Below are positions 15,635-19,453 of a DNA stretch of 55,868 nucleotides, in pieces. Numbering within the stretch: position 1 is the first letter of the stretch; each line of letters opens with the position of its first letter. A program made the translations under genes and the position numbers. The notes below the pieces were generated by a model. The model made no database searches, had not been told where the DNA came from, and saw only the letters and a list, made by a program, of their open reading frames with translations. The stretch is from positions 1 to 55,868 of IMG/VR virus record IMGVR_UViG_2645727563_000002. One strand, written 5' to 3'. The stretch is from a virus. Its lineage: Duplodnaviria; Heunggongvirae; Uroviricota; Caudoviricetes.

Positions 15635-17895
15635 AAGAGCTGTGCTATGGATCTGTTTGCAGTGGAATTGAAGCCGCGAGTATTGCCTGGGAACCGTTGG
15701 GTATGCGTCCGGCGTGGTTTGCTGAAATCGAGCCTTTTCCATCTGCCGTTCTTGCGCACCGCTGGCCCCATGTCGCCAACCTTGGCGACATGACAAAACT
15801 TGCCAAAAAAGTCCTGGCTGGGGAAATCGAATCCCCTGATGTGCTCGTCGGGGGAACACCTTGTCAGGCATTCAGTATCGCTGGATTACGTGGTGGGCTT
15901 GATGATGAGCGTGGCGCGCTAACTTTAAAGTATGTGGAGCTTGCAAATGCAATTGACGACAAACGGGCTGAGTCATTTCTCAAACCGACAGTTATCGTCT
16001 GGGAAAATGTCCCAGGAGTCCTGTCATCGGCAGATAACGCCTTCGGATGTTTCCTTGCCGGATTGGCTGGAGAAGATGCGCCATTTGAACCAGGTGATCG
16101 ACCTGAATCAGGAAAAAGTAACGCGTTCTGGCGGTGGGATGGCAAAACCGGTTGCCATGCTCCAAAGTGGCCGCAGTGTGGTTGTATTTATGGACCGCAG
16201 CGAAAGGTGGCCTGGAGAATCCTTGATGCCCAATACTTCGGAGTGGCACAACGACGCCGACGCGTGTTTGTTGTCGCAAGTGCTCGAACAGACCTCGATC
16301 CCGCAACGGTACTTTTTGAGTTCGAAGGCGTGCGCCGGAATATTGCGCCGAGCCGAAAAAAGAAGGAAATCGCTTCCGCCATTATTGCAAATGGCGCTGC
16401 AATCAGTGGCGAAAGCCTAAATCCATGCCTACACGCTGACATGCCACCCGGTATGAAATCGACGAAAGCCGTAAACGCTTTCAGGATGGCAGCATTTGGG
16501 GAATATATTGACGATGAAACCGCATCGACAGTAAAGGCAAGAGATTTTAAAGATGCCACTGACCTTGCCGTTTTTAGCAGCACAGGAGCAGGTTTTTGGT
16601 CAGAAGGGCATGGTACATTGCGGGCACGTGAGCAAGAAAGCCATGAGCATCTTGTTACATTGGCTTTTCCTGAGCGTATGAGCGGTACACAACATGCTGC
16701 AACTAAGAATACTTCACCATCTCTAATGGCTAAAAATCCAACAGCTGTTTGCTATGAAGTAAGAAACGCAGAAGTAGCTGTCCGCCGTCTTACCCCTGTC
16801 GAATGTGAAAGGCTGCAAGGTTTTCCTGATGGGCATACGTTGATCCCGACGGAAAAGCGTAAAAAAGTTAATTCAGATGAACTGGCATATCTTCGCAATC
16901 ACTATCCAGATTTAAGCGAAGAAGAGGCCGCGATGCTTGCAGCTGACGGACCGCGTTACAAAGCGATCGGCAATAGTATGGCAATACCAGTAATGCGCTG
17001 GATTGGCGATCGGATTACTAAGGCCGTATGTCGGCAGAAAGAAGGAAGTGAAACAAAAGAGCGAAAAGTTAAACCAGCGGCAGAATTCGAACGGTCCATA
17101 TTCAAATGGGCTGGTGGAAAATTTGGCGTTCTGGAACAAATCTTTCGCTATTTGCCAGAAGGGAAGCGCCTGATTGAACCTTTCGTTGGTGGCGGAGCTG
17201 TCTTCATGAATGCCGGATACCAGGAAAATCTGCTAAATGATGTGAATGCTGACCTGATTAACTTTTACAAGACTCTGCAACGCGAGGCGCATTCACTTAT
17301 CACTCTGGCACATCGTTTCTTCCAGGACTACAACACACAGGAAGGATACCTGGCAGTACGGAATGCGTTTAACAAACAAGTCTATGATGATTTACATCGC
17401 GCAGCGGCGTTTTTGTTCCTGAACCGACATTGTTTTAACGGATTGACGCGTTACAACCAGGCCGGTGAGTTCAATGTCGGTTATGGGAAGTATAAAACTC
17501 CGTATTTCCCATTACAGGAGATGGAAGCCTTCCTCGGTGCGGAAGGGCGGTCTGAGTTTGTATGCGGTGATTTTGCAGCGGTGATTGAAGCTGCCGGAGA
17601 AGGAGATGTCATCTTTTGCGATCCGCCGTATGAACCGCTTCCAAATACAGAGGGATTCACGAACTATTCCGGCCATGACTTTAAGTTTGAAGAGCAAAAA
17701 CGCCTGGTGTCTCTGTTGACGGATGCTCATCGTCGAGGTGCAAAGGTTCTCATTACTAACAGTGGCGCGCCAAACATCAGAGAGCTTTATCATGACAGTG
17801 GCTTCAGAGTGGAACCTCTTTTTGCCAGACGTTCTGTGTCTTGTAAGGGGGACACTCGAGGTGTAGCTCATGACGTTTTGGGTGTATTGCTCTAA
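15631..17895 (+). CDS. dmt: bifunctional DNA methyltransferase Dmt (N-terminal C5-cytosine MTase + C-terminal Dam-like N6-adenine MTase, 754 aa)
   Basis: C5-MTase motifs ([29 protein letters not shown]) then Dam motifs ([15 protein letters not shown]); 754 aa as P1 Dmt. Confidence 0.85.
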
Positions 17896-17902
17896 TAAAT
17901 TT
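17886..17902 (+). promoter_or_regulatory. C1 repressor operator overlapping the dmt stop codon
   Basis: attgctctaataaattt, 17/17 to consensus; followed by an inverted partial copy (ttattagtg). Confidence 0.6.
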
Positions 17903-18071
17903 ATTAGTGTAATATCGCCTCAATGAATCGTGATTTATAGAGCGATTTAGCTGTTAGCCGCGACAGGCGCGGCGGTAAGCATGGCTGGGCCTAGTCCTCC
18001 CAGACAAACCACCGAGTTGCCAGGTTGACCATGCGCCTAAGTGGCAACGCCGAAGTGCGTTACGAGCTTCC

Positions 18072-18100
18072 AGTTTGCCCATCTTCGGGTGGGCGTTTTT
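18072..18100 (+). terminator. rho-independent terminator downstream of dmt
   Basis: gccca-tcttcggg-tgggc hairpin followed by T7. Confidence 0.55.
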
Positions 18101-18568
18101 TTCAGGGTTTTCGTCATGGTTAGCGACTTTGCGGCGGTTTATAAACTGACCATTAAAGTAAATGCAAACGATGATCTGATGATGGTAGCGGCCTAAGAAA
18201 CCAGATGCCACGGGGTATGAGTCGTCCCCCGTCAAAAAAATCGACCGCAGAGTGTCCCCGTCTGTGTATTAGGGAACGGGGAGGCACAACAGGTAAGGGC
18301 GCTGGTGTGATTAACCAGATGAACGAGAAGGGGCCATCTGTTGGTCAGCGTCCTTTCCTGTTGCGTTTTCTTTTCAGCGTAACAGCGGTGCTTAACAGCA
18401 CTTTGGGTACAGTTCCACGAATTTACGGGTATATCCCGTCATGCTGAAGGCGCTAATCACGCTGGAAGCCAGGGTTGTGCATCCCCTGTTACCGAATTGC
18501 AGCCAGGGCGCGGTGCGCCGAAAAGCATACGGAGGTGGAAGCCCTCGCCGGAGACGTACCCGGCAGGT

Positions 18569-18644
18569 GATGGTGTAGCTCAGCGGTTAGAGCGGTTGAC
18601 TGTTAATCAACGGGTCGATGGTTCAAATCCATCCACCATCGCCA
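18569..18644 (+). tRNA. trnA: tRNA-Asn (GUU)
   Basis: Cloverleaf with acceptor gatggtg/caccatc, anticodon loop ctGTTaa, T-loop ttcaaat, encoded CCA. Confidence 0.85.
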
Positions 18645-18646
18645 AT

Positions 18647-18722
18647 GCCGGTTTAGCTCAGTTGGTAGAGCGCCTGCCTTGTAAGCAGGATGTCAGCGGT
18701 TCGAGTCCGTTAATCGGCACCA
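18647..18722 (+). tRNA. trnT: tRNA-Thr (UGU)
   Basis: Cloverleaf with anticodon loop ctTGTaa, T-loop ttcgagt, encoded CCA; starts 2 nt after tRNA-Asn. Confidence 0.85.
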
Positions 18723-18726
18723 GCAC

Positions 18727-18800
18727 AACAGGTAAGGGTATTTTGCGACGTCGGAGATCGCCGAGCTTGGCAGAGGGTTCGAATCCCTACGAAGTACCCT
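18727..18800 (+). ncRNA. tRNA-like element / possible degenerate tRNA
   Basis: 74 nt with 8-bp terminal helix ggtaaggg/cccttacc and canonical T-arm aggg-ttcgaat-ccct, but no standard D or anticodon arm. Confidence 0.3.
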
Positions 18801-19453
18801 TACCGTTGTGATGAAGTGCAGCTCTTTGAAGCAACCAGAAGATAAGCATCTGGCTTCACAACATAAACCGCAGGAACGACCAATAAACGGTAGTCCGTAT
18901 GGAGAACACCCCGTTGAGGAAGAGGCCTGGCCGGAACCGTAACCGGCACTACAACGTTGAGAACACTGGCGTAACGGGGTCATATCCCAATCTACGAATA
19001 AATGTTGCGTTGCAGCGTGACAACCAGTGTTCTCAACATTGTGGTGAATGCACAGGCTGATGTGCCGCAACTACAGTAGTGCGCGCTTTGCGGGGCTTGC
19101 TACAACCCTGTGTCGGAGTTCAGCACCGACCATCACAGTTTGATTCTCTGGCATGAGCATAACGCTGAAATAAGTCCAGTCTGGTGCGGCCCGATCACCC
19201 GCCGTTAGCTCCACGAAACGGAGCACGTAACAGGTAAGAGCATTCTCCTGTAACGGGTTCATATCCCAATCTACAGGTCCACCAAGAATGCTCTTTCCGT
19301 TGCGGTGAATGCGGCTAAGCGCACGCGGGGAAATGGTTATATCTGTCCATTATTTCTCCTTGTTTCCACGTCCACGGTGGATAACCAGCCAAAGGACACC
19401 GGGAGGCACCCGGCACCGCAACCTTATTTCCCAACCAGTAATGAGGTTAATAA

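Follow-up and report, generated by a model that had tools for sequence, protein, structure and literature searches.

Hairpins of the LPR2 type and a tmRNA-like tag RNA in the leader of the phage P1 ban operon

Background

The closest described relative of the elements treated here, four hairpins in the leader of the C1-controlled ban operon of phage P1, is LPR2, an RNA of about 63 nucleotides (nt) from the late operon of phage lambda that is enriched with Hfq and is made chiefly during lytic growth (Silverman et al., bioRxiv 10.1101/2024.10.31.621285). Its only chimeric partners in lambda RIL-seq were PreS/LPR1 and fliC, and a role as a sponge was proposed (10.1101/2024.10.31.621285). The available part of this preprint presents LPR2 as a single lambda small RNA (sRNA) and makes no mention of a family, of a constant stem with a variable apex, of links to tRNAs or of a neighbour resembling transfer-messenger RNA (tmRNA). 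The stretch analysed in this study (the window; IMG/VR record IMGVR_UViG_2645727563_000002, 55,868 nt) is phage P1, positions 18000-19500 being 99.3% identical to P1. Transfer of the P1 annotation (NC_005856) by alignment placed the hairpin array in the ban leader.

Phage ssrA genes, which encode tmRNA, have long been treated as a rarity of mycobacteriophages and Bacillus phage G, and a survey of 543 RefSeq phages published in 2014 recorded them only there (PMC4131195). In lambdoid morons, the sRNAs STnc100/PasD, AgvB/AsxR and DicF occupy the same niches as the present hairpins, after Q/tR' and upstream of TerB-like genes and dicB, and the P1 array is itself flanked by dicF-like and STnc100-like modules. 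Yet in AgvB/AsxR the 3' part is conserved, the 5' seed varies and a terminator forms the end, whereas hairpins of the P1 type have conserved ends, a variable centre and no terminator; membership in AgvB/AsxR was rejected on this difference of architecture and on the absence of a model match. Small structured RNAs that are co-transcribed and processed with tRNAs or leaders, and that carry tRNA-like processing features, also include the species 1 and 2 RNAs of T4 and the C4 RNA of P1 and P7, which is processed by RNase P. The hairpins shared no sequence or model similarity with these RNAs (the Rfam C4 model gave no match), and C4 has a defined cis target, whereas none was found here.

The two tRNAs of the leader, its dicF-like region and lambda LPR2 were thus already known. 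No description was found of LPR2 as belonging to a large family whose stem is constant and whose apex varies, of four P1 members (one with a mini-tRNA apex) in place of the annotated genes plp and upl, or of the coupling of such a family to a widespread tag RNA of the tmRNA type. Text searches of the literature with the stem sequences likewise gave no match.

Results and discussion

Four related hairpins in the ban leader

Four related hairpins were recorded on the + strand of the window. Hairpin A (18285..18365, GG..CC core 18292-18358) is the immediate 3' neighbour of the tag RNA described below, and hairpin B (18724..18810, core 18731-18804) starts 2 nt after tRNA-Thr. They are followed by hairpin D (18950..19043), a divergent member, and hairpin C (19226..19304, core 19233-19298). 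The four folds were predicted at -44.8 (hairpin A, z = -5.6), -42.7, -49.2 and -35.4 kcal/mol, with z scores from -5.3 to -6.5 and none of 200 shuffled sequences folding as well. The - strands of the same four folded 3-12 kcal/mol less well (-32.9, -36.3, -45.1 and -32.5 kcal/mol). At the DNA level the stems appeared as inverted repeats at 18287-18304/18346-18363, 18731-18743/18792-18804, 18947-18969/19024-19046 (23 nt, 91%) and 19233-19246/19285-19298.

An earlier note on this DNA had described two canonical tRNAs, a 74-nt tRNA-like element and motifs recurring within and around two long hairpins. All of these items were present in the places given for them or within a few bases, and were not due to chance. 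The motif said to occur twice, each time in a different long hairpin, corresponds to the 25-mer GTAACGGGKTCATATCCCAATCTAC; exactly two copies of it were observed, in the apices of hairpins D (18971-18995) and C (19250-19274), against no match in 100 shuffles with three mismatches allowed. The other motif, said to recur three times, is the 14-mer ACAACAGGTAAGGG, which has exactly two copies (18286 and 18725), the third (19229) being a diverged one with 88% identity over 16 nt. These repeated motifs are the two stem strands and part of the apex of a single repeated structure, and instead of two hairpins plus a motif there are four related hairpins, 18285-18365 having been seen merely as a repeat of the 14-mer. 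The common nature of the elements, their overlap with plp and upl and the tmRNA-like element upstream had not been mentioned, and the beginning of the interval then delimited (18240-18284) is the 3' pseudoknot-like part of the tag RNA.

A constant stem and a variable apex

The rule underlying the structure was derived by comparing P7, D6, RCS47, SJ46, Ro157c2YLVW and the unrelated Enterobacter phage BUCT554. All members share a stem of about 19 base pairs (bp), CACAAC-A-GGUAAGAGCAUU ... AGUGCUCUUUCC-GUUGUG, which consists of 6 bp, a bulged A, two G-C pairs, a U·U mismatch and about 10 bp with a U·G wobble. The arms are near-invariant, with (C)AYAAC-A-GGUAAGRGYAUU on the 5' side and RGURCYCUUWCC-GUUGYG on the 3' side, while the apex of 30-55 nt between them is exchanged wholesale. 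A pattern scan of IMG/VR uncovered at least 119 viral contigs with such a hairpin, and the matches listed comprised 61 distinct sequences. Their apices fell into at least 24 unrelated types, and each type was conserved in differing phage backgrounds. Such a combination of constant stem and exchangeable apex would constitute a natural scaffold for many short RNA sequences, with more than 24 natural "alleles".

Pairing was strongly conserved. In an alignment of 51 sequences, 93.6% of the cells were paired, against 37-55% in slid controls, 9 of the 19 pairs changed on both sides, and none of 500 shuffles reached any of these measures. The bulged A was conserved, and the mismatch was U·U in 42 of the 51 sequences and U-A in the other 9, which include hairpin B. 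The U·G wobble at pair 18-106 (38 of 51), together with U·G/G·U at the base of the stem, pairs only on the + strand. BUCT554 provides an example of compensation, since its hairpin has the apex of hairpin B and compensatory stem changes (GGGUAUUUUG/CGAAGUACCC versus GAGCAUUGCG/CGCAGUGCUC).

A covariance model built from the family (R1) recorded exactly four members in the 56-kb window, all on the + strand, with + over - margins of 12-23 bits. An LPR2-like stem on the transcribed strand was clear in hairpins A (51.8 bits on + versus 39.2 on -), B (55.5 versus 34.8) and C (57.9 versus 34.2), and was also recognised in hairpin D (39.2 versus 26.8). P1 copies belong to the training set, so that the window scores are partly by construction, but the identity of the stems to that of lambda is visible independently of the model. 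In about 100 other loci the strand bias of R1 rose to about 40 bits.

Rfam 15, searched at gathering and permissive E-values in the window and in 14 related loci, has no family for the hairpin, and only tRNAs passed. The refuting outcome named in the earlier note, an absence of covariance-model hits, was thus observed for curated families. It was too narrow, because the model built here reveals a real, covarying and strand-specific family. Several other candidates were rejected. Rfam matches to miRNA, YrlA and ALIL models were noise, the Y-RNA (YrlA) match at hairpin B merely bridging the two real tRNAs (25.6 bits versus a gathering score of 69), and a boxA (NusB/E) reading of UGCUCUUU in the 3' arm was abandoned since the motif is stem-paired and absent from hairpins A, B and D.

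The family occurred in phages of Enterobacterales (Escherichia, Citrobacter, Enterobacter, Serratia, Brenneria and others). Matches in Pseudomonas, Shewanella, Bacillales and other unrelated taxa were of the 73-nt lambda type on low-coverage contigs and most likely reflect lambda DNA contamination. Such contigs (L135, L144, L150, L152, L162 and others, from Pseudomonas, Shewanella, Oceanobacillus, Neobacillus and further bacteria) were of 20-49 kb and low coverage, three of them measuring about 48.4-48.5 kb; others were short. Three or four further matches in the genome collection fit chance expectation, and no member was found in prophages DLP12 and Qin of E. coli K-12, so that RNase III and sRNA datasets from K-12 have no bearing on the family.

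The lambda member is LPR2

When one member was compared with E. coli genomes by BLAST, a match emerged in a lambda prophage, where the hairpin lies 7 nt past the U-tract of tR', between Q and S. The northern probe used for LPR2, P844, is fully complementary to the apex and 3' arm of the lambda hairpin (locus L131, 3085-3119). Furthermore, the lambda core, counted from the GG that follows the bulged A up to the CC that precedes GUUGUG, measures exactly 63 nt, which equals the reported size of LPR2. Because the lambda copy carries both the probe site and the 63-nt core, the P1 hairpins are members of an LPR2 family. The size match also suggests that the lower 6 bp and the bulge are the site where the hairpin is excised.

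The lambda stem CACAACAGGTAAGAGCATT...AGTGCTCTTTCCGTTGTG is the family consensus, and the stems of hairpins A, B and C match it almost base for base. The lambda apex, by contrast, is unrelated in sequence to those of P1, and the settings also differ: P1 has four copies among tRNAs in an early, C1-controlled leader, whereas lambda has a single copy after tR' in the late operon. Small RNAs were among the possibilities raised in the earlier note, and homology directly supports this one, the lambda relative being an Hfq-associated RNA of about 63 nt detected by northern blot in the lytic cycle. If confirmed, LPR2 would be the founding member of a large family in temperate phages of Enterobacterales and in some virulent ones such as Akira.

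Excised small RNAs or processing punctuation

Our results make it somewhat probable that the region is a tandem array of modular non-coding RNAs in the ban leader and not a set of decayed tRNAs, with the stem as a cleavage handle, the excised hairpins as small RNAs and the apex as effector. The array would be transcribed from Pban (promoters with C1 operator Op72, or Oban, driving the whole leader; 17870..17915, + strand, NC_005856 annotation carried over by the 99.3% alignment) once C1 repression is lifted. The conserved stem would then serve host RNases as a handle for excising each hairpin from the polycistronic transcript, and the same cuts would release the tmRNA-like RNA, the tciA-ban mRNA and the tRNAs nearby. 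The freed stem-loops, of about 63-80 nt, would persist as small RNAs whose variable apex is the working part, acting by base pairing as a sponge or regulator, which is the proposal made for lambda LPR2, or, in hairpin B, by mimicry of a tRNA. Candidate nucleases would be RNase III, which fits a duplex of about 20 bp, and RNases P and E, which are compatible with the junctions at tRNAs and at AG|UUUU. RNase III sites have about 20 bp or more of near-continuous double strand; the predicted stems have 19-23 bp with one bulge and one mismatch.

Several points weigh against this array of excised effector RNAs. We infer expression, processing, the nuclease and the apex targets in P1 from homology and sequence analysis. 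LPR2 itself has just two partners in RIL-seq, its role as a sponge being a proposal, and for the P1 apices the best antisense targets in the 56-kb window were of 9-11 nt, which is near chance. It is also conceivable that the apices are neutral cargo. In SJ46, recombination between the two 25-mers has removed the intervening segment and with it hairpins D and C, which are therefore dispensable. An intrinsic terminator (18076-18103, + strand, terminator scan), which closes the dicF-like region, stands between Pban and the array. Finally, 64 of 88 distinct hairpin contexts had no tRNA within 400 nt (9 hairpins abutted a tRNA and 15 more had one within that distance), and processing of tRNAs is therefore not the only or general role of the family. 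A function as processing signals, also raised in the earlier note, may be plausible, with tRNA ends abutted in 9 of the 88 contexts.

The most serious competing explanation is pure punctuation, in which the hairpins are only structures for processing by RNase III, RNase P or RNase E, or for stabilisation, between cistrons, in the manner of the early RNase III sites of T7; the apices would be functionless and the 63-nt lambda RNA a by-product. Stems of 19-20 bp amount to about two helical turns, the hairpins sit at junctions (after tR', after terminators, abutting tRNAs), apex sequences are unconstrained between types and SJ46 tolerates the loss of hairpins D and C. Yet apices keep a length of 30-55 nt instead of shrinking, every type stays conserved in unrelated phage backgrounds, where it shows few changes, and several apices display elaborate tRNA-like folds; LPR2 is moreover Hfq-enriched and forms specific chimeras. 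On these grounds we consider punctuation unlikely, if worth keeping in view.

Genomic contexts and modular exchange

Contexts of the hairpin were diverse. It follows tR' in lambdoid phages, belongs to a non-coding "moron" running from promoter to terminator in the portal-terminase interval of Uetakevirus-like phages, and lies between structural genes in Sashavirus. It often comes after a small covarying hairpin or a terminator and before GUGAAUGC plus a small hairpin. Where it abuts a tRNA, tRNA-Arg or tRNA-Gly begins with the final 2-3 nt of the hairpin, or the hairpin starts 2 nt after tRNA-Thr, as in P1.

Relatives of P1 differ by insertions, deletions and swaps of whole modules bounded by the stems. 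P7 keeps the stem after tRNA-Thr with a different apex, RCS47 has gained exactly one stem-to-stem unit of 174 nt, and Ro157 lacks 13 nt at the tip of hairpin C. The tRNA repertoire of these arrays is likewise exchanged module by module: tRNA-Ser(UGA) replaces window positions 19063-19281 in P7 and D6 (L005 1957-2043 and L004 1907-1993), and tRNA-Tyr or tRNA-Arg is inserted before tRNA-Thr in other relatives (Ro157, L003 1449-1535; L014).

This mosaicism could also be read at the DNA level, the inverted repeats being recombination or mobility sites (attC-like, or cassette boundaries like those of miniature inverted-repeat transposable elements) that shuffle small cassettes. Breakpoints do fall at stems (the RCS47 unit, the cassette swap of P7 and D6), partial BLAST matches stop exactly at the hairpin edge, and the ends AAC...GTT recall the R''/R' cores of attC. 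However, homologous recombination at conserved stems explains the mosaicism, and the strand preferred by wobble pairs and model scores is in every case the transcribed one. The GTTRRRY/RYYYAAC cores were unmatched, the ends being (C)ACAAC and GTTGTGG, and the repeats did not qualify as attC sites. No integrase or transposase was consistently nearby in the flanks examined, and northern blots show the lambda member as an RNA. A DNA-level role thus appears very improbable.

Antisense reading frames plp and upl

Two open reading frames (ORFs) annotated on the - strand, plp ("putative lipoprotein", 18693-19070, 125 codons) and upl (19071-19262, 63 codons), run antisense to hairpins B, D and C. The annotated alternative is that the region codes for Plp, a lipoprotein, and Upl, the hairpins being incidental; the ORFs do exist at these lengths and are annotated in both NC_005856 and RCS47. 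Neither matched a Pfam family, and the promoter scan revealed no promoter-like site for them. Plp has a TTG start, is Cys-rich and has an N-terminus that does not resemble a signal peptide. SJ46, P7, D6, RCS47 and Ro157 carry truncated ORFs, lack them or have other sequence in their place, a 13-nt deletion in upl being one of the changes, and conservation tracks the RNA pairing on the opposite strand. With neither ORF conservation nor a family or signal to mark them as protein-coding, plp and upl are probably not genes, and likely annotation artefacts; that the region serves to encode them is hardly credible. A P1 stretch annotated as two hypothetical proteins would then be a dense array of structured RNAs, which would change the ban/tRNA annotation of P1-like phage-plasmids.

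Apices resembling tRNA

The apex of hairpin B is a mini-tRNA. It comprises a stem of 3-4 bp with a GG-containing D-like loop (about 18744-18760), a 3-bp mini-stem, a T-arm and 1 nt before the long stem. The T-arm, AGGG-UUCGAAU-CCCU at 18774-18788, carries the loop motif GGUUCGAAUCC, and over a core of 20 nt it matches that of a genuine phage tRNA-Ile at every position. This is the 74-nt element of the earlier note (18727-18800): its T-arm was well seen, its bounds were shifted by 4 nt relative to the core, and the 8-bp terminal helix attributed to it is a stem of about 20 bp that reaches 18724/18810. The element was not called as a tRNA by ARAGORN, nor by the Rfam tRNA model (RF00005) at gathering score or at E <= 10.

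Hairpins resembling T-arms were also encountered in other apex types (L014, L039, L207, L223 and PhiSH19), and the 25-mer of hairpins C and D is centred on GGGKUCAUAUCCC, a degenerate T-loop. Most apex types have no tRNA-like features. The possibility that the elements are remnants of tRNAs thus holds only for the apex of hairpin B, with its T-arm and D-like loop, and is weak for the T-loop-like sequence of hairpins C and D; it leaves the conserved stem and more than 24 unrelated apex types unexplained.

Two further phages displayed related arrangements. In Klebsiella phage KP8 an element of about 115 nt (L170, about 578-693) takes the place of the hairpin after the tag RNA. It combines a T-arm (GGUUCGAAUCC) with two complementary strands, UACUGGU (7 nt, 5') and ACCAGUA, and encodes ACCA. 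This element, a candidate tRNA-like partner, was not called by ARAGORN. Salmonella phage PhiSH19 has, downstream of its tag RNA, a long hairpin (L173 715-805; -48.3 kcal/mol, z = -5.2) whose apex is laid out like that of hairpin B (GG-loop, hairpin, T-arm) on a 19-bp stem unrelated to the family, which points to a convergent or very diverged member, as far as the sequence allows.

A tmRNA-like tag RNA upstream of hairpin A

The tag RNA (18104..18284, + strand) begins with the motif GUUUUCGU (18107-18114) and contains a short frame (18164-18193, stop 18194-18196) that reads UAAAU GCA AAC GAU GAU CUG AUG AUG GUA GCG GCC UAA, i.e. ANDDLMMVAA plus stop. The RNA around this frame includes an invariant GUUUU/GAAAC helix. 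The stop is followed by a hairpin (18210-18232) with strong covariation (UA 21/CG 20; GC 24/AU 12/CG 5; AU 33/GC 9) and by a pseudoknot-like region (18242-18282) that includes a covarying helix. BLAST of 18104-18262 recovered 288 phage records, mostly unannotated and often beside tRNAs, from P1-like, Vi1-like (Ackermannviridae), N4/G7C-like (Schitoviridae) and T1-like (Drexlerviridae) phages, Sashavirus, and Cronobacter and Aeromonas phages. About 8 nt upstream of GUUUUCGU, Akira and pIS4-A have a promoter close to the consensus.

The frame was examined in 135 instances from the loci retrieved. All 135 consist of 10 codons plus stop, and the tag RNA has a resume context of the tmRNA type (UAAAU-GCA-AAC-GA); in at least 120 an AUG is lacking and a stop lies in frame 7 codons upstream. 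The 18 peptide variants follow the pattern AN[DE][DEN], four mostly hydrophobic residues and [AV]A (for instance ANDDLMMVAA, ANDDVVLMAA and ANDEQFLAVA), and are similar to ANDENYALAA. The frame has 32 nucleotide versions: none of them changes codons 1-2 or loses the stop, and all four Ala codons are used for the last residue. An overlapping AUG frame gives peptides of variable length (5-9 amino acids), so it is not the selected frame. Judged by sequence, the frame would thus qualify as that of a tmRNA tag, with a resume codon, no start codon, a stop and a peptide resembling a degradation tag. Text searches of papers gave no relevant occurrence of the peptides, and the tag RNA is the first indication found of tag templates of the tmRNA type in coliphages.

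The window itself carries a G>T change at 18142 (TTTATAAAC versus TTTAGAAAC in the P1 reference), by which the upstream in-frame TAG becomes TAT. The tag frame thereby joins a 26-codon ATG ORF (18116-18196) and the GUUUU/GAAAC helix is weakened, a situation shared by about 6 of the 135 instances. The segment 18205-18240 forms a hairpin ACGGGG..CCCCGU followed by A7 on the + strand; its - strand would amount to an intrinsic terminator, the stem being followed by T7. The segment may serve both purposes, as post-tag hairpin on + and terminator on -.

A permissive Rfam search gave a weak tmRNA_permuted match at 18091-18196, and all eight phages tested had sub-threshold tmRNA-model matches, which were the only ones besides ordinary tRNA genes and a few weaker, scattered sub-threshold hits: tmRNA_permuted scored 22.5-33.5 bits (gathering 47), beta_tmRNA 14-19 (84) and tmRNA about 11 (47). 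ARAGORN found no tmRNA in the window or in 14 related loci.

The tag RNA was closely associated with the hairpin family. Among 108 distinct tag-RNA contexts, the 3' arm of a family hairpin runs directly into GUUUUCGU in 46 and a hairpin starts 120-260 nt downstream in 74, one or the other being found in 95. The upstream hairpin of L040, directly 5' of the tag RNA, has a tRNA-like apex of the hairpin B type, and the same apex occurs in the downstream hairpin of L178.

This association raises the alternative of a split tmRNA, in which trimmed, CCA-added hairpins are acceptor-stem mimics that, with the tag RNA, run or redirect trans-translation by the phage's own tag. Likenesses to SsrA in its two-piece or permuted form are the tag RNA with its resume context, its 10-codon tag ending in hydrophobic-Ala-Ala plus stop and its downstream pseudoknot-like helices, the sub-threshold model matches, and abutting hairpins of which some have T-arms, D-like loops or a 3' strand running into the D-loop-like GUUUUCGU. 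Moreover, counted from GG, the stem reads G1-C72, G2-C71 and U3·U70, the conserved U·U being the third pair. Alanine identity in bacteria resides in A73, G2-C71, G3·U70 and G4-C69. McClain and colleagues reportedly found in 1988 that U·U specifically works at 3:70. In vivo, alanine acceptance can be sustained by pyrimidine mispairs at 3:70, and AlaRS also accepts minihelices (PMC9976931).

Yet a recognisable alanine-accepting domain was missing: there is no G3·U70, no encoded CCA or 3' ACCA and no 7-bp acceptor stem beside a T-arm, the T-arm lying 13-15 bp from the GG..CC end instead of 7. The discriminator is G in stand-alone copies and the third pair is U-A in 9 of 51 copies, including hairpin B. 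ARAGORN found no tmRNA at any locus, and the lambda hairpin follows tR' with no tag RNA within the 6-kb lambda locus examined. A conserved long-range helix of the P2 type was not found either, the search from the 5' part of the tag RNA in 94 contexts giving nothing above shuffled controls. A split tmRNA is therefore rather improbable. Within the window, the 5' part of the tag RNA (18129-18142) and the segment after hairpin B (18863-18876) form a 14-nt pair of 86% complementarity (UUGCGGCGGUUUAU / AUAAACCGCAGGAA), of which the 94 other contexts displayed no conserved equivalent above chance.

A wider version of the idea is that P1 and several hundred temperate and virulent phages of Enterobacterales (T1-like, N4/G7C-like, Vi1-like, lambdoid and P1-like) encode a rearranged tmRNA-like system, in which an RNA close to a promoter or terminator, with a D-loop-like motif at its start and a template for a 10-codon proteolysis tag, is joined by one or more flanking LPR2-type hairpins that after excision act as tRNA-like or alanine-acceptor partner, or as decoys of SmpB, EF-Tu or AlaRS. 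We regard this as speculative and doubtful. If it were true, the rescue of host ribosomes and the tagging of proteins would be taken over or retuned by the phage, and a tag template without a canonical tRNA-like domain would bear on the substrate design of trans-translation and on the manipulation of ribosome rescue by phages.

Other elements of the leader

The order along the leader is Pban/Op72, the dicF-like region with its terminator, tRNA-Asn, tRNA-Thr, plp, upl, tciABC, tRNA-Ile(CAT) and ban, and the stretch of about 1.5 kb from Pban to tciA is therefore without a convincing + strand ORF. Pban (about 17870-17915) was not picked up by a simple promoter scan. Both tRNAs mentioned in the earlier note were called as canonical by ARAGORN and Rfam, i.e. 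tRNA-Asn (GTT, 18569..18644, + strand, 74.5 bits) and tRNA-Thr (TGT, 18647..18722, + strand, 72.9 bits).

Small hairpins and connectors, all on the + strand, accompany these elements. The leader hairpin GCCGGAGAnnnACCCGGC (18548..18565), read from the sequence, directly precedes tRNA-Asn and has related copies at 18930-18947 and 19112-19130; the module of this type, GCCGGAG(A/U)..ACCGGY-CAYCACAAC, recurs in P7, RCS47 and BUCT554. The connector modules at 18811..18949 (a GAUGAAGUGCAG.. hairpin, CAACAUAAACC.. and the leader hairpin at 18930-18947) were found piecemeal in Sashavirus, Klebsiella phage-plasmids and Citrobacter phiNP. The small hairpin GCACAGGCUGAUGUGC after GGUGAAU (19050..19065) is the conserved 3' companion of the family and reads GCGCAGGCUGAUGCGC elsewhere, a compensatory change. 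The conserved 5' companion is GCUCC-ACGAAAC-GGAGC before hairpin C (19207..19223), which covaries elsewhere as CUCGgaagagaCGAG and GCCUGgaaagaCAGGC.

The dicF-like sRNA region (17957..18103, + strand), annotated as such in P1, aligned locally with the segment upstream of dicF in the Qin prophage of E. coli K-12, with blocks GGCGCGGCGGTAAG..GTTGYCAGGTTGACCAT..TAAGTGRCAAC. The body of the P1 dicF-like sRNA before the terminator is unlike DicF, and its seed may differ. At the other end of the array, the 5' leader of tciA (19301..19420, + strand) covers positions 31-147 of the 206 of the STnc100 model (RF02076), with 41.9 bits and E = 2.9e-7, below the gathering score of 47, and is a partial relative of STnc100. 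It matches the leader of dicB in Qin over the first 28 nt or so only, whereas the P7 copy does so over most of its length, and the tciA/dicB-type 5' leader looks like a portable leader for moron genes.

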